From Candidatus Omnitrophota bacterium (lineage in GTDB: Bacteria > Omnitrophota > Gorgyraeia > Gygaellales > Profunditerraquicolaceae), in NCBI GenBank assembly GCA_026387335.1, contig JAPLLX010000002.1, positions 13,326-77,325 of the forward strand: a stretch of 64,000 nt of DNA, given 5' to 3'. Numbering within the stretch: position 1 is the stretch's first letter; every line of letters begins with the position of its first letter. The notes beneath the pieces were generated by a model. The model made no database searches, was not told the DNA's origin, and worked only from the letters and a program-made list of their open reading frames with translations. Below, in pieces: positions 13,496 to 49,394 of the stretch. Position numbers and translations under genes: made by a program.

Positions 13496-13555
13496 GGACA
13501 GCGACCATTTTTCTGGTCGCTCAGCTAAGAGAAAAACGGTCGCTGTCCCTATTTA
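13492..13555. repeat. REPIN copy 6
   Basis: Its first triplet TAG is the stop of the PilMN ORF. Loop variant with AAAAACGG. Confidence 0.9.
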
Positions 13556-13562
13556 AAATAGA

Positions 13563-14093: not shown

Positions 14094-14104
14094 AGGAGGT
14101 TATT

Positions 14105-15450: not shown

Positions 15451-16336
15451 AAACGGAAGTATAATCATGATCTGCCTTTGGATAATGGTGATCCTGGGCA
15501 TCCTGGGCATGGGCCTTACCGGGCTGGTATTCCAGGAGATAAGGTTTTCTTCGGCTATTTCGCGTTTGAATTTATCTTTACCTATGGCTAAAGCCGCCCT
15601 CAGGGTAGTTTTTTATGAAAGGGCCGCGGATACTACCCCGGATTACGATACCCTGCAGGAATTAGCGACGGAGAAGAGCGTATCCATATGCGGTAGTAAC
15701 CCCTACAAATACTATTTTGTAGATAAGCAGACTGTTCAAGATTCCGAAGAGATTATAGATGAGAGCGCGCTGATCAATATAAATCTGGCTTCTCTGGATG
15801 TGCTTAAGAGGTTACCCGGCGTAGATGAAGATATGGCGGATAAAATCGCTAACGCGGGCTTTCGTCCCTACTCTTCGATCAATGAAGTTCTTTTGGTAGA
15901 GGGCGTGACAGTCGAAAAATTCCGGCTTTTTAAGGATATGGTTACTGTTTACGGCAAGGGAAAGGTAAATATCAATACCGCCAGTAAGGCGGTTTTGGTT
16001 TGCCTGGGTTTAGATGAGGAATTAGCGGATATAATCTTGCGTTATCGTAAGGTGCATAGAATAGAGCCGAAAAAAGATAAAGACGGCAATCCTATCGGCC
16101 CGCAAGACGAATGTGGATTCTCAAGCCTATCTTCATTGGTTACGGACCTGCGCGAGTTTTCCAGTTTAGGCCTGCGCCAGGAACAGGATCTATTGAGCCT
16201 GCAGAATTCTTTGGCCGTAAAATCAGGATACCTGCGATTTAATATAGTCCCCCAAATAAACAACAAGACCGGCACGCATTATTCCGTGGTTATTAATCCC
16301 GAGACAAAGAAAATTGTTTCCTGGAGAGAGTATTAA
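15419..16336 (+). CDS. GspK-like minor pseudopilin with tandem helix-hairpin-helix-like domains
   Basis: N-terminal hydrophobic helix MICLWIMVILGILGMGLTG (the start is more likely 15467). Two (I/V)N(I/V)NTAS...L..LPG(I/V) repeats as in GspK. Confidence 0.45.
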   Translation: MPRLYFCPQRKNGSIIMICLWIMVILGILGMGLTGLVFQEIRFSSAISRLNLSLPMAKAALRVVFYERAADTTPDYDTLQELATEKSVSICGSNPYKYYFVDKQTVQDSEEIIDESALININLASLDVLKRLPGVDEDMADKIANAGFRPYSSINEVLLVEGVTVEKFRLFKDMVTVYGKGKVNINTASKAVLVCLGLDEELADIILRYRKVHRIEPKKDKDGNPIGPQDECGFSSLSSLVTDLREFSSLGLRQEQDLLSLQNSLAVKSGYLRFNIVPQINNKTGTHYSVVINPETKKIVSWREY

Positions 16337-22434: not shown

Positions 22435-23382
22435 ATGGCAGGATTAGATTTTGAAAAACCTATTGCTGAATTAGAAAAGAAAATCCAGGAATTAAGGCAT
22501 TTTGTCTCGGATAAAAAGATAGACCTTTCTTCCGAAGTAAAACGCCTGGAAGATAAGCTGGAGCATCTTAAGAAAGATACCTACACTAATCTTTCCGCCT
22601 GGCAGAGGGTGCAGCTTGCCCGCCATCCGCAAAGGCCCTATACTTTAGATTATATCAATCTGTTTATAACGGATTTTATAGAAATACACGGAGACAGGCA
22701 CTTTGCCGATGATAAAGCCATTGTCTGCGGCTTAGGCAAATTGGATAAACACAAAATTGCGGTTATCGGGCATCAAAAGGGCAGGGACACTAAGGAGAAT
22801 CTCCAGCGTAATTTCGGCTGCGCCCATCCGGAAGGATACCGTAAGGCGCTTAGAGTTATGCAGTTGGCGGAAGAATTCAATTTACCCGTGGTGATTTTCA
22901 TTGATACTCCCGGAGCCTATCCGGGCATAGGAGCGGAAGAGCGCGGGCAATCCCAGGCCATCGCGTTTAACTTGAGGGAGATGGCCTCTTTGGCTACGCC
23001 AATACTCTCTATAGTCATAGGAGAAGGCGGCTCAGGCGGAGCTTTAGGGGTGGGAGTAGCTGACCGGGTCTGTATATTAGAAAATTCATATTATTCCGTT
23101 ATATCTCCCGAAGGTTGCGCGGCAATATTATGGAAGGATGGTTCAAAGGCGCCTCAGGCAGCCGAAGTCTTAAAACTGACCGGCGCTGATTTGCTGGCCC
23201 TTAAGATTATTGATGAAGTGATCCCGGAGCCGTTAGGCGGCGCTCACCGGGATGTACAGAAAACAGCCCAGAATTTAAAAGAGGTAATAGTGAGAAACCT
23301 CAAAGAATTAAAAGCAATAGATAAAGAAGAACTCTTAAAATTAAGGTATAAGAAATTCCGCAGTATGGGTGTTGTGGCATGA
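22435..23382 (+). CDS. accA: Acetyl-CoA carboxylase carboxyltransferase alpha subunit
   Basis: Canonical AccA N-terminus [33 protein letters not shown] and a crotonase fold pattern throughout. Confidence 0.9.
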
Positions 23383-23897
23383 TTGAGCAGGAACTATTAT
23401 TATTAGGGTTACTCAGGGAAGGCCCCAAGCACGGCTACGATATCAAGACTAAGATCAAACATATACTCTCCTTATTTGCCGGAGTAGAATTAAAATCCAT
23501 ATATTATCCGTTACGCATACTTGAAAAAAGAGGCCTGGTAGCAAAAAGGACGCTTAAACCGGGGAACAGGCCCAAGCGCATAGTTTACGCCCTGACTCCC
23601 AAAGGCCAAAGCCGCTTTAACGAGCTTCTGGGCAAGAGCCTGCTTAACCTGAAAAGGCCGCAGTTTAGCCTGGATTTAAGCCTCTATTTCTTGCACTACA
23701 TGAAGCCTCAAGCCGCCTGCCGGCGCTTGCGCGCAAGATTGCATATGCTGAATAAAATCTCCCGCGGCCTTGAACAGATGATTAAGAAATCCTCGAAAGA
23801 TAAGACTGTCTCCCTGGGGCGCATACTGGAGCATAACGTAAAGATGCTCAATACCGAATCCCGGTTTATCTCCTGGCTTATTGAGTCGATACATTAA
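23379..23897 (+). CDS. PadR family transcriptional regulator
   Basis: [20 protein letters not shown]...[14 protein letters not shown] is a PadR winged helix. 4-nt overlap with accA. Confidence 0.75.
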
Positions 23898-23907: not shown

Positions 23908-23936
23908 TTGACACTGGCGGGATTATCTAATAAAAT
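23908..23936 (+). promoter_or_regulatory. Consensus sigma70 promoter TTGACA-N17-TAAAAT upstream of the 10-gene PKS-like/rSAM operon
   Basis: TTGACA at 23908-23913 and TAAAAT at 23931-23936. RBS AGAGGA lies 8 nt before the GTG start at 23989. Confidence 0.5.
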
Positions 23937-23988
23937 ATAGCTAATTTGAATAGTAAAATTTTACTATATTATAAGAGGAATAAAACTC

Positions 23989-24279
23989 GTGGATTGGGAT
24001 AAGGTTACGCAGGAAAAGCTTAAAATCATTGTCTCTAAGATCCCTGTTTTTCACCGCCATATTACCGAGCAGGCAGTGACTAAAGGGGCGCAAGAGCATG
24101 CCGCCAGAAGGAATTCCGCTAAGATAGAGGAGATAGATGTGATTAACGCCTTCTTCTCGGATGTCCCGGCCGCTTTTTACAGTATGATGGTCAGGCTCCT
24201 GGAGCAAAACGGGTTTGATTATAAAAAATACGGTTTTCCCAAAAATAGGGATGGGAGAACCGTCCCTGGAAAGTTATGA
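23989..24279 (+). CDS. Small PCP_red-like domain protein (protochlorophyllide-reductase BchB C-terminal-like domain)
   Basis: W..V...L...KIPVFHRHITEQAVTKGAQEHAARRNSAKIEEIDVINA resembles my recollection of the PF08369 pattern (W..A...L..iP.F.R......E..A...G...I). GTG start. This is family recall, not a computed hit. Confidence 0.35.
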   Translation: MDWDKVTQEKLKIIVSKIPVFHRHITEQAVTKGAQEHAARRNSAKIEEIDVINAFFSDVPAAFYSMMVRLLEQNGFDYKKYGFPKNRDGRTVPGKL

Positions 24280-25277
24280 AAATAGCAGTAATCGGCGCAG
24301 GCGCCATAGGCAGTTTAGTCGCGGGTTACCTAAAATTAAAAGGCGAAGATGTATATCTTGTCGGCCATAGCGATGCGGTTAAGGCGGTAAGAGAAAACGG
24401 CCTTAAGATTTCCGGAAGACGCGGTGACTTTAAGGTTGAGTTAGGCATCTACGAGATGCTTATCTCCCAGCCGGAACTTTTAATACTGGCGACAAAAACC
24501 CAGGATATTGAGCAGGCGCTCAAAGACAATCTTGGCCTGATTAAAGAGACCGTTGTTTTGACTACGCAGAACGGTATTCAGGCGGAGAAGATAGTTGCCG
24601 GGTTTATCCCTAAAAGTAATATTTTCTCAAGCATAGTGATGTTCGGCGCTACTTATTTAGAGCCGGGTAAAGTTGTGCATAACTTTGAAGGTAGCTGGGT
24701 TTTAGGGAGCATATTCTCTGAGATAACTGACCCCCGGATGCTTTCCTTAAGCCTGGTTTTGAATAAGGCGTTTCCCGCGGTTATCAGTAATGAGATAGCT
24801 GAGATGAAATACCTGAAGATCTTTGTCAATGCCAACAATTGCATCCCGGCTATATTAGGGGTAAGTATGCAGGAAGCCTTTCTCTCTCCCGAAGTGAGCA
24901 AAATAAGCATAGCTATCTGGAAAGAAGGTTTTCAGATAATATCAAAATTAGGGATTAAACTGGCTTCTCTGCCGGGTTTTCCGATAGAAAATATAACCCG
25001 GCTTATTTCCGTACCCAGCGATGAGGCCGCTAAAGTTTTCTCAGGGATCATGAGCAAATTAAGCAAGGATCCGCTCTACGGATCGATTTTACAGAGCATT
25101 AAAAGGGGAAGGTCCTCAGAGATCGATTACATCAACGGAGAATTTGTAAATTTAGCCGATGAGCACGGGCTAAAAGCGGACTTAAACCGAAAGTTAGTTC
25201 AGATGGTGCATGAAGTTGAAAAAACAAAGAGATTTTTTACCAAGGATGAGTTCTTAAGCGCGGTTAAGGATTATTAA
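24276..25277 (+). CDS. ApbA/PanE (ketopantoate reductase) family NAD(P)-dependent oxidoreductase
   Basis: Rossmann N-terminus MKIAVIGAGAIGSLVAGYL and the ApbA_C region SSEIDYINGEFVNLADEHGL. Confidence 0.7.
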   Translation: MKIAVIGAGAIGSLVAGYLKLKGEDVYLVGHSDAVKAVRENGLKISGRRGDFKVELGIYEMLISQPELLILATKTQDIEQALKDNLGLIKETVVLTTQNGIQAEKIVAGFIPKSNIFSSIVMFGATYLEPGKVVHNFEGSWVLGSIFSEITDPRMLSLSLVLNKAFPAVISNEIAEMKYLKIFVNANNCIPAILGVSMQEAFLSPEVSKISIAIWKEGFQIISKLGIKLASLPGFPIENITRLISVPSDEAAKVFSGIMSKLSKDPLYGSILQSIKRGRSSEIDYINGEFVNLADEHGLKADLNRKLVQMVHEVEKTKRFFTKDEFLSAVKDY

Positions 25278-25283
25278 ACTAAA

Positions 25284-25880
25284 ATGTCTGGAGTAAGTTC
25301 ACCTTTCCCAAAACTAAAACTCACGGTTAGCGCAGTTGCGGGCGTTTGTTACCACGGATATAAAGCCGGCGATGAGATTATCCTGGAAGATTTTACGCAT
25401 CCGCCTAAGCATTTTTGCCTGGGGCTGGCCCACGCGTTATTTCCCGTCATATACGCTTTAAGTTTCGGCGCTAAATTCGGCTTCCGCGATAATCAGCGTT
25501 CGCTGCTGGTGACTTGTCCTGACGGAGGGAAGCTGGAATTTAAAGCCGAGATTTTAGACAAAGACGGCAAGGTGGAAACTTTAGCTAAAGACCCGAATCA
25601 TAAATTTAATCCTAAAAAGATGGTCATTGAAGTGGTTAAGGCAAAAGGAAAATGCACATTTGGGTATAAGGTGGGAGATAAATGGGAGACTCTGGGGTTA
25701 AAATGCATACCCGGATTCTGCGGCGCGGCGTTTCATACCGCTTTTCCGGCGCTGTTTGCCTTAAATTTCGGAGCTAAGTTTTTCTTTATGGATAATCCGG
25801 ATGCGATTGATACCGTAACCTGCCCTGATGGAGGGAACATTGTTTTTAAGGTAACGAGAGTAGAAGAGGAGAAAAAATAA
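25284..25880 (+). CDS. Tandem-duplicated small Cys/His-rich domain protein (each repeat about 90 aa; resembles what I recall of the TIGR04076 family)
   Basis: Internal repeat visible by eye: CYHGYKAGDE...HFCLGLAHALFPVIYALSFGAKFGF.DN...VTCPDGGKLEFK, then CTFGYKVGDK...GFCGAAFHTAFPALFALNFGAKFFF.DN...VTCPDGGNIVFK. Confidence 0.4.
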   Translation: MSGVSSPFPKLKLTVSAVAGVCYHGYKAGDEIILEDFTHPPKHFCLGLAHALFPVIYALSFGAKFGFRDNQRSLLVTCPDGGKLEFKAEILDKDGKVETLAKDPNHKFNPKKMVIEVVKAKGKCTFGYKVGDKWETLGLKCIPGFCGAAFHTAFPALFALNFGAKFFFMDNPDAIDTVTCPDGGNIVFKVTRVEEEKK

Positions 25881-25884
25881 TTTT

Positions 25885-27147
25885 ATGAATAAACGTAGAG
25901 TAGTGATTACGGGAATCGGAGTAGTTTCTCCTAATGGTATCGGTAAAGATAAAGTTTATCAGGCGATGTGTAACGGCGTATCCGGGATAAGGCGGGTAGA
26001 TGGTTTTGATGTCTCGGTATTTAATACCAAGATTGCCGCCGAGGTGCGGGATTTTGATCCGTTCAAATTAGGGCTTAACCATGACGAAGCTGTGCGTATG
26101 GATAGATACGTGCAGTTTGGAGTCGTCGCCGGAAATATGGCAATTAAGGATAGCGGGATTGATTTTTCTAAAATTGACCCCGGGCGCGTAGGGGTTTGCC
26201 TGGCCAACGCTATCTGCGGGACAAAATATATGGAAGAAGAATTTGCCTTCGTAACCGACGACGGTAAAAATCCCATTGATCCGTCAAAGGTCAGGCCGGA
26301 CCTCTATGATGCGGCGATGTTTAATACGCCTTCCATTGAATTATCGGCCAAATACCATCTTAAGGGAATATGCAACACTCTTTCTACGGGTTGCACAGCC
26401 GGGACTGACGCGCTCGGATTTGGCCTGGAGACCATCCAGGACGGCGAGGAGGATGTTATGATTTGCGGCGCTGCCGAAGCTCCGATTACGCCGATTACTT
26501 TTGGCGCGTTTGATGTGGTGAATGTTTTATCCTGCCGCAATGATGACCCGCAAGGGTCAAGCCGCCCTTTTGATAATAAGCGTGACGGTTTTGTCTTAAG
26601 CGAAGGCGCCGGGATTTTAATCTTAGAGGAGTTAAACCACGCGTTGAAACGCAACGCCCGCATTTATTGCGAAGTTTTAGGATTCGGCACTAGCTGTAAC
26701 GCCTTTCATATGACTGACCTTCCCGGAGACGGAGACGCTATGACCAACTGTATAACCCTGGCCTTAAAAGATTCCGGGATCAAACCGCGGGAGATAGACT
26801 ATATCAGCGCCCACGGTTCCAGCACCAAGATGAACGATATATTTGAAACTAATGCTTACAAGACAGTTTTTGGCGACTACGCCTATAAGCTTCCCATAAG
26901 CTCGCTTAAATCTATGATCGGCCATCCCTTAGCCGCGGCCAACGCCGTTGAGCTTACCGTATGTTCAATGATTTTTGAGAAGAATATCCTTCCGCCGACC
27001 ATCAACCAGGAAGAAAAAGACCCTTTATGCGACTTGAATTACATTCCGAATAAGGCCATTGAAAAGAAAGTAGACACCATTATTAAAACCAGCTCGGGTT
27101 TTTCCGGGATTCATTCTTCGTTGATATTAAGGAGATATAGTGGATAA
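25885..27147 (+). CDS. Beta-ketoacyl synthase, catalytically complete (KS-alpha / FabF-like; Cys-His-His-Lys present)
   Basis: Active-site Cys in LSTGCTAGTDALG, His1 in AFHMTD, His2 in ISAHGSST, Lys in LKSMIGHPLAAANA (GHxxGAAG-like). Confidence 0.85.
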   Translation: MNKRRVVITGIGVVSPNGIGKDKVYQAMCNGVSGIRRVDGFDVSVFNTKIAAEVRDFDPFKLGLNHDEAVRMDRYVQFGVVAGNMAIKDSGIDFSKIDPGRVGVCLANAICGTKYMEEEFAFVTDDGKNPIDPSKVRPDLYDAAMFNTPSIELSAKYHLKGICNTLSTGCTAGTDALGFGLETIQDGEEDVMICGAAEAPITPITFGAFDVVNVLSCRNDDPQGSSRPFDNKRDGFVLSEGAGILILEELNHALKRNARIYCEVLGFGTSCNAFHMTDLPGDGDAMTNCITLALKDSGIKPREIDYISAHGSSTKMNDIFETNAYKTVFGDYAYKLPISSLKSMIGHPLAAANAVELTVCSMIFEKNILPPTINQEEKDPLCDLNYIPNKAIEKKVDTIIKTSSGFSGIHSSLILRRYSG

Positions 27148-28366
27148 AATAGCGGTTACAGGCATAGGCATAGTTAGCCCTTCAGGGATAAATAAAAGGC
27201 AATTTTGGGCGAATATAAAAGCCGGCCGCTCTTTTGTCAAAGAGATTACCCGCTTTGACGCTTCCAAATACCCATCACGTATCGCCGGTCAAATTGACGA
27301 ATTAAATAAATACAGCAATATTTCCGAGAGGCTGCTGAAAAAAATCGACGCCTTTTCGCACATGGCCCTGATCGCCTCGGAATTAGCGCTGCAGGACGCC
27401 GGAATTGATATAAAAAATGAAGACCCGAACTTAGTCGGCATATTTTTAGGCAACGCTATCGGCGGCTGGCTTTATGCCGAGACTGAGCTACGCGATTTGT
27501 ATATTGAAGGCCGCGAGGGAGTATCGCCCTATATGGCTTCAGCTTGGTTTCCCGCCGCGCCGCAAGGCCAGGTATCCATTTATTACGGTATCAAAGGTTT
27601 TTCTAAAACAGTAGTCGCGGACAGGGCCAGTTCCTTGATGGCTTTAGGTTACGCCCGAAAAGTCTTAAATAAAAATAAACTTAATATGATTTTATCCGGC
27701 GGAATGGAAGCGCCGGTTACGCCCTACGCTCTTTTATGCTGCAGCACTTACGGAGCTCTTTCCAAAAATAATGCTCGTCCCCAAGAAGCTTACCGGCCTT
27801 TTGATAAAAAGCGCGACGGTTGCGTGATTGGCGAAGGCGCCGGAATCGTGGTTATGGAGAGCATCGCGCGCGCGGCTAAAAGAGGGGTAAAGCCGTTGGC
27901 TTATATTTCAGGATACGCCGCGACCTGCGACGGGCTAGACCGGATTAATTGCGCCAGCGACGGTAAGGAGTTAGCCCGGGCGATTACCTTAGCGCTGGCT
28001 GACGCAAAAACTAACGCCGGCGAAATTGATTACATAAGCTTAGACGGACTGGCCCTGGATTTATGGGATAACTCCGAGTTAAGCGCGATAAAAAGTATTT
28101 TTAAAGAAAGGGCAAAGGATATTCCGCTGAGTTGCCCTAAATCCATGTTTGGGAATTTGCTGGGAGCCTCGGGAGTAGTGGATATGATTACTACTATTTT
28201 GGCAATGGAGAATAATCTTATACCGGTTACCTTAAATTTGGAGGAGCCCAGCGTTAAAGGGTTTAATTATGTTACTAAAGAAGCAAAGGAACATAAAATA
28301 AATAAGGCCTTGGTAATCTCGCGCGGAAGAGGCGGGATAAATTCGGTCTTAGTAGTGGAAAAGTAA
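27140..28366 (+). CDS. KS-beta / chain-length-factor-like ketosynthase paralog lacking the catalytic Cys and both His
   Basis: KS fold (N-terminus MDKIAVTGIGIVSP). The Cys position reads VVADRASSL, His1 is YISLDGLAL, His2 is KSMFGNLLGASG (His to Asn). 8-nt overlap with the KS-alpha gene. Confidence 0.7.
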   Translation: MDKIAVTGIGIVSPSGINKRQFWANIKAGRSFVKEITRFDASKYPSRIAGQIDELNKYSNISERLLKKIDAFSHMALIASELALQDAGIDIKNEDPNLVGIFLGNAIGGWLYAETELRDLYIEGREGVSPYMASAWFPAAPQGQVSIYYGIKGFSKTVVADRASSLMALGYARKVLNKNKLNMILSGGMEAPVTPYALLCCSTYGALSKNNARPQEAYRPFDKKRDGCVIGEGAGIVVMESIARAAKRGVKPLAYISGYAATCDGLDRINCASDGKELARAITLALADAKTNAGEIDYISLDGLALDLWDNSELSAIKSIFKERAKDIPLSCPKSMFGNLLGASGVVDMITTILAMENNLIPVTLNLEEPSVKGFNYVTKEAKEHKINKALVISRGRGGINSVLVVEK

Positions 28367-28384
28367 AAAGTTAGAGGAGGAATT

Positions 28385-29845
28385 ATGAAGATTTTATTTG
28401 TTATGCCGAAAGTCGGAGCCTGGGCAACGCACGGAATACACCGTTCACCAAATCAGCTCTACGCCCATTGGGCAGCGTACGCGCGCGAAAGAGGGTATGA
28501 GGACGTAGCGGTTATAGACGGTAAGGCTGACCAGATACCTATGGAGCAGTTGGTTGAGCAGGTAAAGCAGAAGAATCCCGATATCGTGGTCATGGGCGAA
28601 CAGCTGCACGGTTATGGCGGCTACGGAGTTTTACGCCATTTTAAGGATGCCGCCGCCGGTATAAAAAAAGCGCTTCCTAAAACAAAAATTATTCTGGGCG
28701 GGTTATGGTATTCGGCAATGCCCGTACCGACATTAGAGGAAAATCCCGCTGTAGATTTTGTAGTGATGGGCGAAGAGGAGTCTTTTGGGGACCTGATTGA
28801 AGCAATAGATAAAAATAAGCCTCTTAAAGACGTGGGTGGAGTAACTTCGCGCATTGATGGCCAAATCGTTATGGGGCCGCATAAACCGTTGCTGGAAGAT
28901 TTGGATAAGTTACCCCTGCCGGCTTATGATTTGTTTCCTATGGATAAATATGTGGGTCACACTTATTGGAAGCCTTTTGTGGATATGGTTACTTCCCGCG
29001 GATGTCCATCGGCTTGCACTTTTTGTTATGAATGGGACCAGTTTGACCCCCGCTCTCCGTCGGATTTCCTGAAGTGGCGGGCTAAATCCCCGGAAAGAGT
29101 TATGGAAGAACTTAATCTTCTACACAGAAAATACGGGGTTAAAGTCGTGGTTATTCAGGATGATAATTTCAATGTCGATCCGGCGAGGGTGAAAAAATTC
29201 TGCGAGCTGAAGAAAGCGTCTAATAATCCGATTAAATGGGTTTCTCTGGGCCGGGCGATAGATTGGGTTAATTGCGAATCCATCCTGCCCTTAATGAAGG
29301 AAAACGGTTTATTTATGGGCGTTTTCGGCATTGAGGTTACCACTCAGTCAGAGCTTAAGAAAATCGCTAAAGGTATCACCATTGATCAGATCAAGAAAAC
29401 TATAGAGATGTTCCGTAAAAACGATATCGCCATTGTCGCCGATATTATGATGGGTTTTGATTATGATACCGAAGAAATTGTTAAGCAGCGTTTTGAGTTT
29501 ACTGACCAGGTGGACCCGGATGTCCTCTGGGTGGGTTATGTTACTCCCGCTCCGAATTCACCAATGTGGAGGATTGCTTTAAAGAAAAAGTGGATGGACC
29601 CTAAGAAGGTAGATTTTAGCCAATGGGACTTTTTGCATCCGGTAATTCCTACGGACCATCTTTCCACAGAAGACTTAGGGCGCCTGGGTTCATGGTGTAT
29701 GCGGGAATTTTTCTCCAAGCCCGGCCGCATTAATAGGATCATGGAGAGCAATTTTGATCCTTTGGCCAAGCTTTGTTTCAAGGATGTTATGGATGGTATT
29801 AACAAGTGGGAAGCAGCCGCGACCAAGGGCGAAGTGCAGATATAA
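28385..29845 (+). CDS. B12-binding radical SAM enzyme (class B rSAM)
   Basis: N-terminal cobalamin-binding-like Rossmann domain (MKILFVMP...IVVMG...IILGG), then the radical SAM cluster motif CPSACTFC (CxxxCxxC). 486 aa. RBS AGAGGAGG. Confidence 0.85.
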   Translation: MKILFVMPKVGAWATHGIHRSPNQLYAHWAAYARERGYEDVAVIDGKADQIPMEQLVEQVKQKNPDIVVMGEQLHGYGGYGVLRHFKDAAAGIKKALPKTKIILGGLWYSAMPVPTLEENPAVDFVVMGEEESFGDLIEAIDKNKPLKDVGGVTSRIDGQIVMGPHKPLLEDLDKLPLPAYDLFPMDKYVGHTYWKPFVDMVTSRGCPSACTFCYEWDQFDPRSPSDFLKWRAKSPERVMEELNLLHRKYGVKVVVIQDDNFNVDPARVKKFCELKKASNNPIKWVSLGRAIDWVNCESILPLMKENGLFMGVFGIEVTTQSELKKIAKGITIDQIKKTIEMFRKNDIAIVADIMMGFDYDTEEIVKQRFEFTDQVDPDVLWVGYVTPAPNSPMWRIALKKKWMDPKKVDFSQWDFLHPVIPTDHLSTEDLGRLGSWCMREFFSKPGRINRIMESNFDPLAKLCFKDVMDGINKWEAAATKGEVQI

Positions 29846-29860
29846 GCTAGCGGAGGAAAG

Positions 29861-30097
29861 ATGGAGACAAAACAGAAAATTAAAGAAGTGCTGGTTGACC
29901 TGCTTAAGGTAAAGCCTGAAGAATTAAAAGATGCTGTTGCCTTGCAAGAGAGTATCGGCGTAGATTCTACCGAAATAGTGGAATCGGTTATCGCCCTGGA
30001 AAAGGCGTTTGGGGTGAAACTTAGCCCGAAAGAGATTACCAAGTCTTCCAGTATAGACGATATCGCGATAGTTGTGCAGTCCAAACTTAAAGCCTAA
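29861..30097 (+). CDS. Acyl carrier protein
   Basis: 78 aa; phosphopantetheine-attachment motif GVDSTEIVESVIALEKAFG (DS- Ser). Confidence 0.8.
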   Translation: METKQKIKEVLVDLLKVKPEELKDAVALQESIGVDSTEIVESVIALEKAFGVKLSPKEITKSSSIDDIAIVVQSKLKA

Positions 30098-30895
30098 ATG
30101 AAGATAATTGACTTAAGCCTTCCTATAGACGATAAGGCGTTTGAAGTCCACAAGGTAGCCATTGAACGGGTGACCCATAAGGCGGGAGTGGAGAAATTTA
30201 ACCGCGTGATTATGGGGAAAACTCTCTCCGGGAGGATCAAGTATCTCCTCGGTAAGCGCATACTTAAGAAAGAAGACCTGCCTGACGAGGAATTTTTATC
30301 GCTGGAAATAGTGCATTCTCCTGTTCACATCGGCACCCACCTGGATTACTCATTCCATTACGGCTCAAAATCAGAGGGTAGGCCTTCCAAGACCGCGGAA
30401 GATATCCCGCTGGAATATTGTTATCAGGATGGCGTTAAGCTGGATTTGACCCACAAAAAACCCAACGAAACAATTTCATCAACTGACATTGAAGCGGCGC
30501 TCTCAAAAATCAATTATAAATTAAAACCTTGGGATATTGTTTTCCTATTTACCGGAGCGGATAAGTTTTACGGCTCCCCGCAGTATTTCTCGGATTATCC
30601 GGGAATTGATATTTCGGCGATAGATTATCTTCTAGATAGAGGGATAAAGATTTTTGGCGTAGATACTATGGGCATAGACAGGCCATACAGGTTTATGTTA
30701 AAAGAGTTCTTAGAGAAAAAAGACCCTAAGGCGCTCTACCCGGCGCATTTCTACGGCAGGAAAAGAGAGTTTATCCATATTGAAAGGCTGGCGAATTTAG
30801 AAAAACTTCCGGCTTTCGGATTTAAGGTAATTTGTTTTCCGGTAAAGATTAAACAGACCGGAGCAGCATGGTCGAGAGTAGTTGCCATATTATAA
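30098..30895 (+). CDS. Putative cyclase family protein (PF04199, kynurenine-formamidase-like metal-dependent cyclase/hydrolase)
   Basis: Signature HSPVHIGTHLDYSFHYG (HxGTHxDxPxH-type). The start abuts the ACP stop. Confidence 0.7.
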   Translation: MKIIDLSLPIDDKAFEVHKVAIERVTHKAGVEKFNRVIMGKTLSGRIKYLLGKRILKKEDLPDEEFLSLEIVHSPVHIGTHLDYSFHYGSKSEGRPSKTAEDIPLEYCYQDGVKLDLTHKKPNETISSTDIEAALSKINYKLKPWDIVFLFTGADKFYGSPQYFSDYPGIDISAIDYLLDRGIKIFGVDTMGIDRPYRFMLKEFLEKKDPKALYPAHFYGRKREFIHIERLANLEKLPAFGFKVICFPVKIKQTGAAWSRVVAIL

Positions 30896-30906
30896 GGGAG
30901 GTTAAG

Positions 30907-31347
30907 ATGGGACATACTTGTAATTCAATTATAATTAACGCGCCGTATGATCTGGTTTTTGATATTTCTAACGATATACCGCGTTGGACTGAATTATTCG
31001 GAAGTGAATACAAGAAAGCGGAGATTGTAAAAAGAGAAGAGAATAAGATTACTTTTCGCCTGACCGATGATGAGGATAAATCCTGGATTTCCTGGAGGTT
31101 ATTGTTTAAGGATAAATTTTTTACTTATTCCGAAAGGCAGGAGCCGAAATTTCCGTTTAAATATATGAAGATCGTCTGGCTCTATACGCAAAAGCCGGAA
31201 GGAACAGCGCTAACCTGGATACAACATTTTGAAATGGACGACAAAGCTAAATTTAACGATGAGCAGGTAGAAGGTTTTATCAACAAGCATTCCAAAGACA
31301 ATCTTTTAATTTTTAAGAATGTGATTGAAAAGGCAGCAGCAAAGTAA
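30907..31347 (+). CDS. SRPBCC / Polyketide_cyc2-like small protein (aromatase/cyclase-like lipid-binding fold)
   Basis: About 145 aa; SIIINAPYDLVFDISNDIPRWTELF is a START/Bet v1-like N-terminal beta-strand pattern. GGGAGG RBS before the ATG at 30907 (the ORF track's 30868 start overlaps the previous gene). Confidence 0.45.
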   Translation: MGHTCNSIIINAPYDLVFDISNDIPRWTELFGSEYKKAEIVKREENKITFRLTDDEDKSWISWRLLFKDKFFTYSERQEPKFPFKYMKIVWLYTQKPEGTALTWIQHFEMDDKAKFNDEQVEGFINKHSKDNLLIFKNVIEKAAAK

Positions 31348-31363
31348 TTTTAGGAGGTAACCC

Positions 31364-32140
31364 ATGAATCAGGAATTAAAAGGTAAGGTAGCGATTGTAA
31401 CAGGAGCCAGCCGGGGTATTGGTAAGGCCCTGGCCTGCACCGCGGCAAGTCTTGGGATTAATTTAGCTATTGCCGCCCGCGGCGAAGGACCGTTAAAAGA
31501 AACAGCTGATGAGATCGCCAAGAAATACAAGGTAGATGTATTAGCTGTTCCTTGTGATGTCACTAAATTAGAAGATTTAGAGAATTTGGTGAACAAAGCC
31601 AAGGAAAAATTTGGTAAAATCGATATTTTGATCAATAACGCCGGAGTTTCATCCCAATATCCATTCCAGGAGCAGCCGATTGAGGATTTTGAAAGGCTGG
31701 CCCATACGAATTATTTAGGATATGTGCGCCTGATCCGTTTGGTTATTAACGATATGATTAAGAATAAGTCCGGGGCGATAATCAATATGGTTTCCGGCTC
31801 AACCCTTTGCGACCCGCTACCAAGGAATTTTATCGTCTATAGTTCGCTTAAAGTCGGTTTACGCGCTTTTTCCAAGGGCCTTTTCTGGGAACTACGCGAC
31901 CACGGTATAAAAGTAACTTCGATATTGCCCGGAGTTACGGACACTGATCTGACCGGTAAATTAAAAGAGATTACCAGCCAAACTTCCAGGCTGATGAGCA
32001 CCGAGGCAATTGAAGACGCGGTGAGGTTTGCTCTGACCGTGCCAGCGAATGTCTGTCCGTTAGAGATTGCCGTAATTAATCAACAGACACCCTGGACCGC
32101 GCCGGTAATACCATTTGAGCAGAAGCATCCCGGGAAATAA
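31364..32140 (+). CDS. Short-chain dehydrogenase/reductase (ketoreductase-like SDR)
   Basis: TGASRGIG cofactor motif, NNAG, catalytic S...YxxxK (YSSLK). Confidence 0.85.
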   Translation: MNQELKGKVAIVTGASRGIGKALACTAASLGINLAIAARGEGPLKETADEIAKKYKVDVLAVPCDVTKLEDLENLVNKAKEKFGKIDILINNAGVSSQYPFQEQPIEDFERLAHTNYLGYVRLIRLVINDMIKNKSGAIINMVSGSTLCDPLPRNFIVYSSLKVGLRAFSKGLFWELRDHGIKVTSILPGVTDTDLTGKLKEITSQTSRLMSTEAIEDAVRFALTVPANVCPLEIAVINQQTPWTAPVIPFEQKHPGK

Positions 32141-32142
32141 AA

Positions 32143-32171
32143 ACACCCGGCCCTATCGGATGGGCCGGTGT
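32143..32171. repeat. Conserved hairpin D copy 1 (ACACCCGGCCC-TATCGGAT-GGGCCGGTGT), possible operon-end terminator
   Basis: 7-bp GC stem with an 8-nt loop immediately after the SDR stop. A covarying copy is at 62428-62455. Confidence 0.5.
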
Positions 32172-32199
32172 TGTCCTGGTGGACAAAAGGAGAGAACTG

Positions 32200-32805
32200 A
32201 TGAAAAGAATGATTTTGGCGGTAGTACTATTCTTAAGCGTTACAGGAATATGCTTAGCGGCTGAGAATTTATTGATTGATGATTTTGAGGTAGCTGTCTC
32301 CGGAGGCCTGGAAGGAACAGTTGACTTTGGCGCTGGTAACGGTTCATCCGTAAATGTAACCGCAGCTACGGATATTAAAAATACGGGAAAGCAGTCTTTA
32401 AAAGTTGACTATGATGCTGTCCCCGGAGGATATATCTATGTTGCCAAAGGTAAGGGCCTAGATGCCAAGAATACTGAGTGGCTAGTTAAGCCTGAAGATA
32501 TTAAGTGGGAAGATTATAAGGCGTTCTCATTCTATATGTATGGCACGGATTCTAAAGCTAGGATAGCTTTTGACATTAAAGACAACGGAGATGAGCTTTG
32601 GCGTTTTGTGGTCGAGGATAATTTTAATGGCTGGAAGCAGATTGTCTGCGACTTTGATAAATTCTTAGTCCGTGACGACTGGCAGCCTAACAGTTCCGAT
32701 AAAAACGCGAAAATTGATTTTCCGATAAAGATCTTTCAGCTTGAGCCGTTGCCTGCGTCAAAAGGCACGCTTTATTTTGATACCGTAGAATTGGTTAAAA
32801 AATGA
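32200..32805 (+). CDS. Secreted beta-sandwich protein (carbohydrate-binding-module-like), hypothetical
   Basis: Signal peptide MKRMILAVVLFLSVTGICLA after an AGGAGA RBS. The rest is Gly/Asp/aromatic-rich, consistent with a beta-sandwich. No confident family. Confidence 0.3.
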   Translation: MKRMILAVVLFLSVTGICLAAENLLIDDFEVAVSGGLEGTVDFGAGNGSSVNVTAATDIKNTGKQSLKVDYDAVPGGYIYVAKGKGLDAKNTEWLVKPEDIKWEDYKAFSFYMYGTDSKARIAFDIKDNGDELWRFVVEDNFNGWKQIVCDFDKFLVRDDWQPNSSDKNAKIDFPIKIFQLEPLPASKGTLYFDTVELVKK

Positions 32806-33197
32806 TGAACAAACTGGATTTAAAAAATTTGAAAAAACGCTACCTCATCTGGTTTTATAAAACTACCAGAGAGGCGCTGGATAAAATTGAACGCAAATTT
32901 ACGCAAAGCGAAATCGACCGCTTTATCTTAAAAGAGCTTAAAAGAGCTGATAAGGAGAAAGCCGCCGAATCTTTTATCGCCCAATTTGAGGAGTATATCC
33001 GGAAAAAAGAACAGGATGGGTTGAGCTTAAAATTTGAGAATAAAAAGCCAAAGCCGCATTATGTATTCCTGGTTTTAAAGCTGGAGGCGATCCAGAAGGC
33101 TATCGTGAAGGAATTAGGGAAAAAAGCGCTGGAAGAGATAAAGTTACTTTATGAAATAGAGATGACTGAGCGTATATTAAGGAATACGGAACACTAA
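32802..33197 (+). CDS. Hypothetical protein (charged, helical)
   Basis: ORF with 4-nt overlap to its neighbour; no motif recognised. Confidence 0.25.
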   Translation: MMNKLDLKNLKKRYLIWFYKTTREALDKIERKFTQSEIDRFILKELKRADKEKAAESFIAQFEEYIRKKEQDGLSLKFENKKPKPHYVFLVLKLEAIQKAIVKELGKKALEEIKLLYEIEMTERILRNTEH

Positions 33198-33198: not shown

Positions 33199-34107
33199 AT
33201 GATTATTGACAGCCATAGCCATTGGTTGCCGGAAGGCATAATCAACAACGCTCATTTTTATCATAAGGGTTGGGGTGATATTGAGGCTCAACTTAAGATG
33301 ATGGATGAGGCAGGAATTGATAAGGCGGTTTTGTCATATCCGACAACCGACGCGCACCTAAAGTTGGGCAGTATATCCGAAGTCGTGCGCATATTTAATG
33401 ACCATGTCGGCAAAATCATTCAAATTTATCCGGATAGGTTTATCGGCGCGGCGATCCTCCCGATAGATCACCAACCGGATATGCTTAAAGAGCTAAAACG
33501 CGCGACCGAAGAATTAGGTTTTAAGGCCGTGTCTCTAGCGACCAGTTACGCCGGAATTTATTTGGACGACGCAAGATTCCTGGAAGTATACAAGATCGCG
33601 CAAAGCCAAAACTTGCCGATTTTTGTACACTCACAGATTGTAAAACCGATAGGCAGCGAGCGCGTAGAGGACCCGTTGCTTACGCCGGTGATTGAATATG
33701 TCTTTGATACGACGATGTGCATAGGCAAACTCTTAATGGCGGATATTTTACGCGATTATAAAGTGAAATTTATCTTTGGTTACTTTGGCGGAGTAACGCC
33801 ATTCCTGGCGAATAGATTTGACGCGACCTATCAGATGCTGCGAGGAATGAATTTTGTTAAGGATTTAGGAGCTAACCCCAGCGAATACTTAAAAAATATT
33901 TATGTGGATACCAGCGGAGATAAGACGCAAGCGAATTTCTCGGCGGCGCTGGAATTATTAGGGCCCAAGCATATTTTATGGGGGAGCGACTGGCCGGCGA
34001 AGAAAGACATCGCTACAGGAATCCAAGCAGTCAAAAACTTAGCAATATCCGATGCGGATAAAAATAATATTTTAGGCGGTAATTTAGCTAGTATATTAGC
34101 TCTTTAA
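33199..34107 (+). CDS. Amidohydrolase-2 family (PF04909) metal-dependent hydrolase/decarboxylase
   Basis: N-terminal IIDSHSHWLPEG (HxH metal ligands); TIM-barrel length; the ...WGSDWP Asp near the C-terminus. Confidence 0.65.
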   Translation: MIIDSHSHWLPEGIINNAHFYHKGWGDIEAQLKMMDEAGIDKAVLSYPTTDAHLKLGSISEVVRIFNDHVGKIIQIYPDRFIGAAILPIDHQPDMLKELKRATEELGFKAVSLATSYAGIYLDDARFLEVYKIAQSQNLPIFVHSQIVKPIGSERVEDPLLTPVIEYVFDTTMCIGKLLMADILRDYKVKFIFGYFGGVTPFLANRFDATYQMLRGMNFVKDLGANPSEYLKNIYVDTSGDKTQANFSAALELLGPKHILWGSDWPAKKDIATGIQAVKNLAISDADKNNILGGNLASILAL

Positions 34108-35145: not shown

Positions 35146-35895
35146 ATGCAGATGGTTAAGGATATACATTTAACAGGTAAGGACTTGACGGATATGGTGC
35201 AGTTGAGGCCACAGGACGTAGGCAAATACGCGATTGTCCCCGGCCCAAAAGACAGGCTGGAGACCTTAATCAAGAAAATTGAAAATCCGGTGCGGAATTT
35301 TTCATTTATGGAATACACGATGTACACCGGGACATTTGAAGGGATAAAGCTTAGCGCGATTAACGGCGGAAGGTTCTCCACCGATACTTCCATCACGACT
35401 GAGGTAATGTGCAACGCGAAAATTGAGAATATAATCCGCGTAGGAACCGCCGGCAGCCTGGACGAGAATATAAAAGTAGGGGATTTATTCGTGGTAGATG
35501 AAGTAATCCGCGGCGATGGAGTTACCCCTTATTATGTAAATAAAGATTTTAAAACTGTCGCGGATAAGAAAATTTCCGATACGCTTTATCAGGTTGGTAA
35601 AGATATGGGCTTGACTATCCATCGCGGCAAGGCCTGGACAACGGATGCGCTCTTACGCGAGACCAGAGAAATCGTGGAAGCCAAGCGTAAAGAGGGAGCA
35701 AGAGTAGTAGATATGGTTTCTTCAACCTTATTAACTATCGCGCAAACTTATAATATCAAGGCCGGTTCAATTTTAGCGGTCAGTGATAATGTCGTAACCG
35801 GTGAAATGGGCTTTATGAATCCTTTATATTATATGGCGGAGTCTAATATCTTAAAGATAGCCTTGGAAGCAGTTAAAAAATTAGAGGGAAAATGA
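35146..35895 (+). CDS. PNP/UDP-family nucleoside phosphorylase (candidate 5'-deoxyadenosine / MTA phosphorylase)
   Basis: Uridine/purine phosphorylase fold signatures: ...YTGTFEGIKLSAINGG...RVGTAGSL...GDLFVVDEVIRGDG. Confidence 0.7.
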   Translation: MQMVKDIHLTGKDLTDMVQLRPQDVGKYAIVPGPKDRLETLIKKIENPVRNFSFMEYTMYTGTFEGIKLSAINGGRFSTDTSITTEVMCNAKIENIIRVGTAGSLDENIKVGDLFVVDEVIRGDGVTPYYVNKDFKTVADKKISDTLYQVGKDMGLTIHRGKAWTTDALLRETREIVEAKRKEGARVVDMVSSTLLTIAQTYNIKAGSILAVSDNVVTGEMGFMNPLYYMAESNILKIALEAVKKLEGK

Positions 35896-36818
35896 AATTT
35901 TCTCCATTATTTTGGCCGATCCAGTTTAAGAACGGCATAATTTATATTCTTGACGAAACTCTTCTGCCCCAGAAACTTGCTTATATAAAGGCCAGGAATT
36001 ATAAAGAGGCCTGTCGCGCTATCAAAGAGATGAAGACTCGGGCTGTAGGCCAAGTGCTCCTGGTGATGTATATTTTTCTGCAGTTGGTTAAACAAAAAAA
36101 ACAAAAAGATTTAGTTAAGGTTGCTAAAGTCGTAAATGCTACTCGTCCGACTCTCTCTTTTAAATTTTTAACCGATATGGTTTTAGGTTGGGCAAAGAGC
36201 AGGGTCCCTTTAGAAAAATGCATTCTGGGATTCCTGGAAGGCTTGAAATGCAGCCGTATCAGGCAGGCAGAAGAGGCCTCCAAATTAATTAAAAACGGGG
36301 ATGTAATACTTACGCATTGCAATATCAGCGGGCTGATGCCTTTAATAGCTGAATTTTGCGCTAGAGAAGGCAAAGGAGTAAAATTTTTCGCGACGGAAAC
36401 CCGGCCATATCTACAAGGTTCGCGCTTAACTGCCTGGGAATTAAAACGGCAGGGTTTTGACGTGACCTTGATTACCGACGGGATGGTGGCCGCGGTTATG
36501 TCTCAAGGGAAAGTGAATAAGGTTATTGTCGGAGCCGACCATTTAGCCCAAAACGGCGACATTGCCAATAAAATCGGCACTTACGCTATAGCGGTGTTAG
36601 CCCGGCATTTTAAGATACCTTTTTATGTTTTATGCCCGCCGGCTTCAGGGTTAAAAAGCGGGAAAGATATTAAGATCGAGATACGTCCGGATAAAGAAAT
36701 GTTAGAGTATCAGGGCTTGCGCCTGGCGCCCAAAGGGGTAAAAGGATATTACCCGGCATTTGATGTTACTCCTAATGGATTAATTACTAAACATATACCT
36801 TTGGAGATTAAAAGATGA
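35892..36818 (+). CDS. MtnA/eIF-2B family sugar-phosphate isomerase (5-(methylthio/deoxy)ribose-1-phosphate isomerase-like)
   Basis: eIF-2B alpha/beta/delta family pattern: ...VIVGADHLAQNGDIANKIGTYAIAVLARHFKIPFYV. Confidence 0.7.
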   Translation: MKFSPLFWPIQFKNGIIYILDETLLPQKLAYIKARNYKEACRAIKEMKTRAVGQVLLVMYIFLQLVKQKKQKDLVKVAKVVNATRPTLSFKFLTDMVLGWAKSRVPLEKCILGFLEGLKCSRIRQAEEASKLIKNGDVILTHCNISGLMPLIAEFCAREGKGVKFFATETRPYLQGSRLTAWELKRQGFDVTLITDGMVAAVMSQGKVNKVIVGADHLAQNGDIANKIGTYAIAVLARHFKIPFYVLCPPASGLKSGKDIKIEIRPDKEMLEYQGLRLAPKGVKGYYPAFDVTPNGLITKHIPLEIKR

Positions 36819-37816
36819 TTTTCGGTAAAGAGCGAAAGATAAAAAATGAAATAATTAAAGTTGGGAAACGGCTTTATCAAACCGGCCTGACTGTGGCTAA
36901 ATCCGGGAACTTAAGCGCAAGGCTGGATAATGAGAATATCCTTATCACGGCTACCGGGACATCTCTGGGAAATCTAAAATATAAAGATATCGTGAAAGTT
37001 AATTGGCAATCCGGCGAAACACGCGGTGGAATCAAGCCCAGTTCGGAGCTGCCTTTACATATTTTGGTTTATAAAAACTTCGGCGCCCGGGCAGTTATCC
37101 ACGCTCACCCGTCTTTAATCAACGGGTATTTCGCGGTTACCTCGGATTTAAAGGCTTTAACTTTTGAGACTAAATTTTATCTTGGCAATGTTCCGGTAAT
37201 CGAACAGGATACGCCTACTGTGACTAAGCCTGAAGCGGTAATAAGCGCGTTAAAGGTAAATAATCTGGTCGTCCTTAAGAATCACGGCATAGTCGCTATC
37301 GCGGATAAATTTTGCGACGGCCTGAATCTGGCCGAAGCGTTAGAAGAGGCTGTGCGCTCTCTGGCAGTTGCCAGAATATTTGATAAAAGCGTGCTTGATG
37401 ATTTGGATAAAGCGCTAAAGCAGGAGCTTACGCAGAACGCCCGCTTACCCATGTTTTCTAAAGACCATATCCAGGCGATTGTAGATCTGGTAAATAAGGA
37501 TGAATTCATCGCTCAAAAAGGGAGAGAGTTGGATTTGACGCTGAAACTTGCCATAAAATTAGACGGGAGCGATAAGGCCTATAAATTTAATTTTGAAAAA
37601 GGTAAAATCATAAGATTGGATTTTGACGCTGACGCGCCATTTGTAATTTCAGCTCCTGCCGAGGTTTGGGAACAGGTTTTTTTAGGAAAACTTGATTGTT
37701 TCGTGGCGGTTACACAGGGAAAGATGAAGCTATCCGGCCAGTTGGGGCAGCTCTCTAAGTGGTATGTGCCTTTTACCCGGCTGTTCGGGATATTTAAGGA
37801 AGTAAAAATAAAATGA
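36815..37816 (+). CDS. Class II aldolase/adducin-family enzyme fused to a C-terminal SCP2-like domain (MtnB/fuculose-P-aldolase-like)
   Basis: The N-domain GLTVAKSGNLSARLD and HAHPS metal-binding His are typical of class II aldolases. The C-terminal about 100 aa ...FNFEKGKIIRLDFDA...GKMKLSGQLG resembles SCP2 sterol-carrier domains. Confidence 0.65.
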   Translation: MIFGKERKIKNEIIKVGKRLYQTGLTVAKSGNLSARLDNENILITATGTSLGNLKYKDIVKVNWQSGETRGGIKPSSELPLHILVYKNFGARAVIHAHPSLINGYFAVTSDLKALTFETKFYLGNVPVIEQDTPTVTKPEAVISALKVNNLVVLKNHGIVAIADKFCDGLNLAEALEEAVRSLAVARIFDKSVLDDLDKALKQELTQNARLPMFSKDHIQAIVDLVNKDEFIAQKGRELDLTLKLAIKLDGSDKAYKFNFEKGKIIRLDFDADAPFVISAPAEVWEQVFLGKLDCFVAVTQGKMKLSGQLGQLSKWYVPFTRLFGIFKEVKIK

Positions 37817-42700: not shown

Positions 42701-42712
42701 GCCGCTTCTCTT

Positions 42713-49328: not shown

Positions 49329-49387
49329 GGACAGCGACCATTTTTCTTGGTCGCAGAGAAGAGAAAAATGGTCGCTGTCCCTATTTA
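49324..49387. repeat. REPIN copy 8
   Basis: Identical to copy 7. Confidence 0.9.
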
Positions 49388-49394
49388 TCATAAG

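Follow-up and report, generated by a model that had tools for sequence, protein, structure and literature searches.

Work on type II polyketide synthases (PKSs) has been confined almost entirely to aerobic actinobacteria, whose products are shaped by oxygenases. Ring-forming radical chemistry that is independent of O2 is known from radical S-adenosylmethionine (SAM) enzymes such as BchE, the anaerobic Mg-protoporphyrin IX monomethyl ester oxidative cyclase, and HpnJ, the hopanoid-associated ring-contracting radical SAM enzyme, both of which form five-membered carbocycles. Pairs of a ketosynthase (KS) and a chain-length factor (CLF) from Candidatus Omnitrophica have been catalogued without description, in a catalogue whose supplements do not name the Omnitrophica entries (PMC10132072). 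Likewise, 'ladderane' calls have been made in metagenome-assembled genomes (MAGs) of Omnitrophota, with their function reported as unknown (PMC9902471), and the nearest case of a type II PKS together with a radical SAM enzyme involves a HemN-like (class C) methylase (PMC9714029). Here we analyse ten open reading frames (ORFs) on the + strand, g1 to g10, in a 64,000-nt stretch of Candidatus Omnitrophota DNA (contig JAPLLX010000002.1, positions 13,326 to 77,325; hereafter the window). These genes, as read from their sequences, appear to form a chromosomal, repressor-controlled, oxygen-independent type II (aromatic) polyketide operon, a reading to which we assign a probability of about 70%. The combination of type II PKS core enzymes with a B12 radical enzyme makes it probable that an aromatic compound is produced without oxygen. 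A literature search recovered no description of this gene set, nor one of a class B radical SAM enzyme in a type II PKS, in line with an initial annotation of this DNA, which knew of no characterized example.

The ORF listing places all ten genes, on the + strand, where the initial annotation had located them:

23989..24279, + strand: g1, 96-aa helical protein, function not assigned
24276..25277, + strand: g2, ApbA/PanE-family NAD(P)H ketoreductase (PF02558 and PF08546)
25284..25880, + strand: g3, tandem TIGR04076 Cys/His protein
25885..27147, + strand: g4, KS-alpha, active ketosynthase (PF00109 and PF02801)
27140..28366, + strand: g5, KS-beta/CLF-like inactive partner (PF00109 and PF02801)
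28385..29845, + strand: g6, B12-binding (class B) radical SAM enzyme of the BchE/HpnJ-like group (PF02310 and PF04055)
29861..30097, + strand: g7, acyl carrier protein (ACP) with a DST motif (PF00550)
30098..30895, + strand: g8, PF04199 metal-dependent cyclase/hydrolase with the motif HxGTHxDxxxH
30907..31347 (listed ORF start 30868), + strand: g9, TcmN/WhiE-type aromatase/cyclase
31364..32140, + strand: g10, classical short-chain dehydrogenase/reductase (SDR; PF00106)

Core enzymes of the operon

The best match of g4 in the PDB is the act KS (1tqy_A, 372 bits, 3e-110), followed by AntD of the Photorhabdus anthraquinone cluster (6smo_B, 365 bits, 5e-108), while FabF structures score at most 341 bits. 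Alignment to 1tqy_A showed that g4 retains all four residues of a complete ketosynthase (Cys, His, His and Lys), as had been claimed, with an active-site motif, STGCTAGTD, of the KS-alpha form. In a search of 1.8 billion representatives its nearest non-orthologous relatives were 45-54% identical, and its relatives include proteins that carry the IMG name 'minimal PKS ketosynthase (KS alpha)', for example from Laceyella. A rough neighbour-joining tree without support values groups g4 with the act KS and proteins with the STGCT motif, and sets the FabFs with a TACA motif apart. The higher scores of g4 on the act KS-alpha and AntD than on any FabF argue against a grouping of the KS pair with FabF/FabB, the outcome that had been named as contrary to a PKS. 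The fabF models are the top NCBIfam matches for both g4 and g5; on the fabF equivalog TIGR03150 the two proteins score 453 and 357 respectively, both below the cut-off of 494. Of the canonical fab genes whose adjacency would point to fatty acid synthesis (fabZ, fabI, fabD and fabH), none was found in the window, of which 55 ORFs were scanned.

The partner protein g5 is 32% identical to g4, and the two genes overlap by 8 nt. Its predicted loss of the catalytic Cys and both His is borne out by an alignment to FabF 3o04, in which all three are replaced by Asp. The Asp-Arg at the position of the Cys is invariant in 82 orthologues, as is the Asp at the second His position, and the third Asp is kept in at least 70% of them. 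The ACP assignment of g7 likewise holds, with 38.5 bits on PF00550 and a DST motif, and the protein falls below every housekeeping AcpP cut-off in NCBIfam.

Both cyclase assignments of the initial annotation exceed their Pfam cut-offs. The g9 protein scores 33 on Polyketide_cyc (cut-off 23) and 28.4 on Polyketide_cyc2 (cut-off 27.4), and matches WhiE-ORFVI (3tl1/3tvr) with 3e-26 and TcmN (2rez) with 3e-23. Its residues aligned to W28, F32, Y35, W65, S67, R69, W95, W108, Q110 and N136 of TcmN, in what we take to be the numbering of the TcmN pocket, are conserved. Its translation probably starts at the ATG at 30907, giving 146 aa, because the first 13 residues of the listed ORF are unconserved and the orthologues are 146 aa long. 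The g8 protein, with the motif HIGTHLDYSFH, scores 96 bits on PF04199 (cut-off 23) and has an isatin hydrolase match in the PDB (5e-6). A kynurenine formamidase was rejected for it, as the arylformamidase model reaches 20 bits against a cut-off of 223. A ketoreductase (KR) had been counted, with the KS pair, the ACP and the two cyclases, as part of a minimal type II set; the SDR is indeed present (g10, adh_short PF00106, 177 bits), but it is generic, with clavaldehyde dehydrogenase and FabGs as its best PDB matches and no special likeness to ActKR. TcmN-type systems cyclise unreduced chains and need no ActKR-type C-9 ketoreductase. Consistent with this, g10 and the ApbA-type g2 are more likely to be tailoring enzymes.

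The g6 gene is placed between those of the CLF-like protein and the ACP. As had been proposed, its product combines a B12-binding domain (PF02310, 43 against a cut-off of 32) with a radical SAM core (PF04055, 74 against 29.5) bearing the motif CPSACTFC. BchE (208 bits) and HpnJ (159 bits) lead the ranking of named NCBIfam families and match nearly the whole protein, while models for the maturation of ribosomally synthesised and post-translationally modified peptides (RiPPs) and for P-methyl and C-methyl transferases give at most 116 bits, below cut-off. BchE proper (TIGR02026) was rejected, since its cut-off is 481; the cut-off of the HpnJ model is 578, and the ladderane-type TIGR04072 gives 71 against 360. 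The best solved relative is AprD4 (8e-15). As the nearest named families form carbocycles independently of O2, we give an oxidative or ring-forming role for g6 and C-methylation about equal odds. In L059 and L065 a further B12 radical SAM paralogue was seen at the start of the locus, upstream of ComM, where the window has a TPR protein.

Against curated model thresholds, nine of the ten domain calls of the initial annotation pass. Its ApbA/PanE reductase (g2) scores 181 on TIGR00745 (cut-off 141), with 117 bits for ApbA and 69 bits for ApbA_C in Pfam, and the tandem duplication of a small Cys/His domain in g3 corresponds to two TIGR04076 copies (99 bits, cut-off 33). The call that fails is the 'PCP_red-like' label of g1, for which PCP_red (PF08369) is unmatched in a Pfam scan even at E<=10. 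The top Pfam match of g1 is DUF2621, sub-threshold at 22.8 bits (cut-off 27.7), and a Foldseek search of PDB folds with a single-sequence AF2 model (pLDDT 62) gave nothing below E=2. It is the first gene of the block in every locus. Of the translational overlaps described earlier, 24276/24279 and 27140/27147 are true overlaps, while 30097/30098 is an abutment. Pfam and NCBIfam scans of the operon detected no dehydratase or enoyl reductase, as had been noted, and neither these nor an oxygenase occur in any copy of the cluster that was examined.

Conservation across Omnitrophota

Exact-sequence look-ups of g4 and g5 of the window returned no record, and the genomic context was taken from related loci. 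A scan of one genome per species yielded 158 CLF-like relatives, of which the best 80, being 77-91% identical and almost all labelled Candidatus Omnitrophota (some 'Planctomycetales'), were examined for gene order. The order and orientation of g1 to g10 are identical in 80 of these 80 species-level loci as far as the contigs reach, and the arrangement is therefore not due to chance. Median identities to the window, taken over the 17 genomes with both flanks visible, are highest for the radical SAM protein g6 (89.9%), the most conserved protein of the block, followed by the SDR g10 (89.1%), the TIGR04076 protein g3 (85.2%), the KS-alpha g4 (83.1%), the cyclase g8 (81.5%) and the CLF-like g5 (79.9%); the corresponding values are 79.0% for AccA, 74.1% for the L,D-transpeptidase and 65.8% for ComM. 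Since the identities of the block match or exceed that of AccA, the purifying selection on it is no weaker than that on a core enzyme, which is unusual for secondary metabolism. The cluster is a trait that a large lineage of Omnitrophota has conserved.

Searches for homologues with the radical SAM protein, g3 and a divergent cyclase returned near-orthologues only, with no characterized relative among them. They come from hundreds of clusters, mostly labelled Omnitrophota, with a few labelled Desulfobacterota, Acidobacteria and Patescibacteria. The GC content of the region is unremarkable and its flanks consist of core genes (ATP synthase, type II secretion/pilus and LeuRS), which together indicate vertical inheritance. 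Of these, the ATP synthase genes, including a b/delta fusion, lie at 4303-9132 of the window and the type II secretion/pilus set at 9122-16336, both upstream of the cluster. An Rfam scan found two tRNAs (52667-52889) and no riboswitch. The window has an IS200-like gene of its own far upstream of the cluster (2125-2832), and an ORF for an IS200-like Y1 transposase lies between the ACP and cyclase genes of locus L078 (13022-13720).

Control region and linked genes

The elements that surround the ten genes are the following:

22435..23382, + strand: AccA, acetyl-CoA carboxylase carboxyltransferase alpha (PF03255, 505 bits)
23379..23897, + strand: PadR-family regulator, candidate repressor (PF03551, 52 bits)
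23908..23936, + strand: sigma-70-type promoter TTGACA-N17-TAAAAT, matching at 11/12 positions
23950..23967, unstranded: perfect 18-nt palindrome ATAGTAAAATTTTACTAT, probable operator, between the -10 box and g1
32147..32168, + strand: GC-rich hairpin CCGGCCC-N8-GGGCCGG, with no T-run after it
32179..32805, + strand: secreted CBM_11-like beta-sandwich protein, a variable member found in 32 loci (PF03425, 67 bits)
32802..33197, + strand: 131-aa protein with no family match, found in 46 loci and always before the decarboxylase
33199..34107, + strand: Amidohydro_2 protein of the ACMSD-type aromatic-acid decarboxylase group (PF04909, 86 bits)
35146..35895, + strand: nucleoside phosphorylase PNP_UDP_1 (PF01048), predicted step 1 of a salvage of 5'-deoxyadenosine like the dihydroxyacetone phosphate (DHAP) shunt
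35892..36818, + strand: MtnA-like sugar-1-phosphate isomerase (TIGR00524, 199 against a cut-off of 186)
36815..37816, + strand: class II aldolase fused to an SCP2 domain (PF00596, 114 bits; PF02036, 24 bits)
37813..39300, + strand: aldehyde dehydrogenase (PF00171, 562 bits)
49347..51104, + strand: AMP-binding ligase, possible starter-unit activator, weakly linked in the window at 17 kb from the cluster

The consensus promoter of the initial annotation is present, and a promoter of the form TTGA[CT]A...TA...T lies upstream of g1 in 53 of 59 loci. Behind it we found the palindrome, of which ATAGTAAAATTTTACTAT is the sole match in the window with 3 mismatches allowed. In the form TAGTAAAATTTTACTA it follows the promoter in 58 of 85 loci. 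Of the 85 loci fetched, 58 contain its 16-nt core, each a single time and, wherever this was checked, ahead of the operon; it also precedes the operon in the divergent locus L085. The palindrome has the form TAGT-N8-ACTA, which was scored against the 4-8-4 inverted repeat of the PadR type, whose operator consensus is ATGT-N8-ACAT. The AccA and PadR genes lie directly upstream of the operon, as had been described. A padR gene adjoins the operator in 24 of 50 loci with upstream room, but none is found within 6.7 kb in about 16, and some loci have the palindrome without a nearby padR gene. Hence PadR is a plausible rather than a proven regulator of the operon through this candidate operator. In L081 a MarR gene takes the place of padR and the palindrome is absent. 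AccA is found upstream of the operon in 28 loci, not in all, and is accordingly context rather than a fixed part of it. In seven loci (L021, L030, L043, L049, L054, L064 and L072) a longer leader (AAACTCTTTAAT.TCAATGGGGTTA), absent from the window, lies between the palindrome and g1, about 60-100 nt before the latter; it could be a regulatory RNA or merely a conserved ribosome-binding region.

The GC hairpin after g10 had been taken for the end of the operon. As it has no T-tail and the next gene follows about 30 nt later, it is not a clear end, and with downstream genes remaining linked beyond it we rejected it as an unproven terminus. The limit of ten genes also has to be given up, in that the functional unit is larger, with the decarboxylase and the salvage set linked to it. 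The decarboxylase has its best PDB match in LigW (4e-21), followed by ACMSD and gamma-resorcylate decarboxylase, enzymes that act on hydroxy-aromatic acids or related substrates. It stays with g1 to g10 in L074 and L078 despite a different upstream flank, and is linked to them in three more divergent clusters (L081, L084 and L085), each of which also has a size-matched counterpart of the 131-aa protein. In L085 the two cyclase genes are separated by one for a small Cupin_2 protein, and a Flavodoxin_2/FMN_red gene lies immediately upstream; small cupins are typical accessories of type II PKS clusters (TcmJ-like).

The genes for the phosphorylase, the isomerase and the aldolase follow one another with overlaps, and that for the aldehyde dehydrogenase comes next. 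The phosphorylase lies at most 2.5 kb after the decarboxylase in 34 of the 38 loci with room for it. In L074 and L078 the salvage set is relocated to just upstream of g1, raising total adjacency to 36 of 38; it likewise adjoins the cluster in the divergent loci L081 and L085, and in L084 it is 5 kb away. An aldehyde dehydrogenase gene is linked to the cluster in L014, L017, L040, L048, L070, L074, L078 and L085, and the aldolase-SCP2 fusion was also seen next to the divergent cluster L085. These genes look like a predicted 5'-deoxyadenosine salvage, and their linkage to the cluster suggests that the radical SAM flux is high enough to need its own disposal of the by-product. L074 (447-2001) and L078 (from 461) each have the palindrome twice in tandem ahead of a gene for an AMP-binding ligase, after which come the salvage genes, g1 to g10 and the decarboxylase. 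The L074 ligase is 54% identical to that of the window, L078 has a matching ORF in the corresponding place, and an AMP-binding gene lies near the cluster in L085 as well.

Some neighbouring genes are predicted to act in transport. In divergent copies an MFS transporter gene lies between the SRPBCC and SDR genes, and L081 has, upstream, the MarR gene and an MMPL transporter with a sterol-sensing domain; the transporters, none of which is found in the lineage of the window, are encoded at 3208-5574 and 13010-14101 of L081, 5426-6547 of L084 and 14631-15752 of L074. In the window itself, an efflux system is encoded on the strand of the cluster, about 8 kb after it (40498-46641); it consists of an outer-membrane factor, an adaptor of the HlyD type, and two each of ABC ATPases and ABC-2 permeases, and is a possible exporter of the product.

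Predicted pathway, alternatives and known systems

In the predicted pathway the ACP g7 would be loaded with malonyl units by the malonyl transferase of the cell, with AccA helping to supply them, and the g4/g5 heterodimer would assemble an unreduced poly-beta-keto chain, possibly primed in some lineages by the AMP-binding ligase. The TcmN-type cyclase g9 would close and aromatise the first ring, and the metalloenzyme g8 would close a further ring or release the chain. The LigW-like decarboxylase might then remove the terminal carboxylate, with g10 and g2 reducing carbonyls. The step that aerobes perform with O2, or with SAM-dependent chemistry on activated carbon, would fall to g6, either as a radical oxidation and carbocyclisation like those of BchE and HpnJ or as a C-methylation at an unactivated carbon, with g3 (a Cys/His protein with an XdhC-like fold) and g1 as its probable helpers. 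The 5'-deoxyadenosine released by g6 would be recycled by the adjacent phosphorylase, isomerase, aldolase and aldehyde dehydrogenase, of which the last would oxidise the acetaldehyde derived from the shunt. The MFS or MMPL exporters may have been added to the pathway in some lineages.

The initial annotation had interpreted the genes as a type II aromatic polyketide pathway. This interpretation is supported, with the corrections given above, in that the check on the grouping of the ketosynthases and on fab genes and the check on the cyclase thresholds both came out in its favour. Several observations nevertheless weigh against it. The product, the formation of the chain and its length are predictions made from the genes. 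The partner g5 has Asp-Arg where canonical CLFs carry Gln, and it scores higher on FabF 3o04 (271 bits) than on the act CLF 1tqy_B (234 bits); as it thus shows neither the Gln nor the closer affinity to CLFs than to FabF that define canonical members, it may depart in function from a classical chain-length factor. The tree of the ketosynthases is rough, g6 lies below every curated family cut-off, and ActKR is absent from the 16 best solved relatives of g10. The PF04199 family includes hydrolases, and isatin hydrolases were the sole solved relatives of g8 found. Neither a phosphopantetheinyl transferase nor a malonyl transferase was seen in the window. Finally, conservation at the housekeeping level, the MMPL/MFS exporters of some copies and the fusion of SCP2 to the aldolase would also fit a membrane lipid or a cofactor, rather than a classical antibiotic.

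These points bear on three other explanations. Ordinary housekeeping fatty-acid genes (FabF/FabB, FabG and AcpP) clustered by chance could be suspected from the adjacent AccA and from the fabF models that head the matches of both ketosynthases. This we rejected as scarcely credible, given the KS and ACP scores below the respective cut-offs, the loss of the catalytic Cys and His from g5, the lack of fabZ, fabI, fabD and fabH among the scanned ORFs and the presence of two polyketide cyclases in the operon. An aryl-polyene or other highly reducing type II PKS was rejected for want of a dehydratase. An unusual fatty-acid or 'ladderane-like' lipid pathway, in which the FabF-like pair, the ACP, the reductase and the B12 radical SAM enzyme would make a modified membrane acyl chain, has more in its favour: antiSMASH 'ladderane' clusters of unknown role have been reported in Omnitrophota MAGs (PMC9902471), g5 scores nearest to FabF, the block is as conserved as housekeeping genes, and there are the transporters (the MMPL one with its sterol-sensing domain) and the SCP2 domain already mentioned. 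Genome-mining tools would probably label such a cluster as a ladderane-like lipid. However, a ladderane-type system was rejected on the TIGR04072 score, the operon alone cannot make a saturated chain because it has no dehydratase or enoyl reductase, g4 is KS-alpha-like and not FabF-like, and the TcmN/WhiE aromatase/cyclase and the aromatic-acid decarboxylase would have no role there; we hold a lipid pathway to be very unlikely.

A small, non-polycyclic product of a PKS-like system seems to us unlikely as well, if a little less so. Here an unusual starter, made or activated by the AMP-binding ligase and the ApbA reductase, would be extended by a single condensation or only a few, before the radical SAM enzyme forms a carbocycle of the cispentacin type. 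The five-membered carbocycles formed by the nearest named relatives of g6 would agree with this, as would the departure of g5 from the Gln-type CLFs and the ligase at the head of the operon in L074 and L078. The KS proteins also give partial matches to AmcF of the cispentacin pathway (162 and 135 bits), but these are far under the cut-off of 325 and, for g4, cover the C-terminal half only. Moreover, long unreduced chains are the substrates of TcmN/WhiE-type cyclases, whose pocket residues g9 retains, and the solved structures closest to g4 are ketosynthases from polycyclic pathways (act and Ant). We therefore prefer the type II aromatic polyketide operon.

A bolder version of the aromatic polyketide reading, which we regard as conceivable though doubtful, is that the compound is a lineage-wide and strongly selected core metabolite of a large Omnitrophota branch and a few other anaerobes, made without O2 by a pathway with a BchE/HpnJ-like g6 in place of oxygenases for the oxidative or ring-forming step, its own 5'-deoxyadenosine recycling and a nearly invariant operator. 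As such, its role could be that of a quinone-like, redox-active carrier, or else that of a pigment or lipid of the envelope. The collinearity of the genes, their conservation above that of AccA, the operator in 58 of 85 loci and the linkage to the salvage set suggest a product of importance to the fundamental biology of these bacteria, which are very small and possibly depend on a host.

The cluster is an uncharacterised, oxygenase-free, radical-SAM-containing type II PKS operon, a complete-looking type II pathway in an uncultured and mostly anaerobic phylum. Oxygenases are replaced in it by a B12 radical SAM enzyme, and the named families nearest to that enzyme carry out ring formation anaerobically. 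Should g6 act on the polyketide, this would be new chemistry for both classes of enzyme and a new anoxic route to aromatic scaffolds, encoded in a defined and clonable unit of about 10-15 kb.

Compared with known systems, the cluster shares with whiE and tcm of Streptomyces a KS-alpha with the Cys-His-His triad and an STGCT-G-D motif, a translationally coupled inactive KS partner, a dedicated ACP, a mono-domain aromatase/cyclase matching WhiE-ORFVI and TcmN, and the lack of a dehydratase and an enoyl reductase. It differs from them in that the partner has Asp instead of Gln and is no closer to the act CLF than to FabF, in that oxygenases and O-methyltransferases are missing, in the class B radical SAM gene between the CLF and ACP genes, and in its additional TIGR04076 protein, ApbA reductase and g1. 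Furthermore, its host belongs to an anaerobic candidate phylum, in which it is conserved like a core gene set. The non-actinobacterial anthraquinone cluster of Photorhabdus (AntD/AntE, 6smo) resembles it through the match of g4 to AntD (5e-108), whereas AntE is not among the listed matches of g5. The Photorhabdus cluster includes a CoA ligase and, to our knowledge, has no radical SAM enzyme, TIGR04076 protein or ApbA reductase. With BchE and HpnJ, g6 has in common an N-terminal B12-binding domain and a radical SAM core with CxxxCxxC, but it scores far below their cut-offs (481 and 578), has no chlorophyll or hopanoid genes nearby and is embedded in a PKS core. The anammox 'ladderane' cluster of the antiSMASH rule (TIGR04072) likewise combines FabF-like KS genes, an ACP, an SDR and a B12 radical SAM enzyme; in contrast, the present cluster has polyketide cyclases and an aromatic-acid decarboxylase and lacks a dehydratase. 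Finally, the linked phosphorylase, isomerase and aldolase make up the same set as the DHAP shunt of the MtnP type (MtnP-MtnA-Ald2), a salvage route for 5'-deoxyadenosine and methylthioadenosine (MTA) that converts the former to DHAP and acetaldehyde (PMC10986504). In the present set, however, the phosphorylase is nearer to the uridine/DeoD type than to MTA phosphorylase, the aldolase bears an SCP2 domain, and the genes are physically tied to one radical SAM biosynthetic operon.

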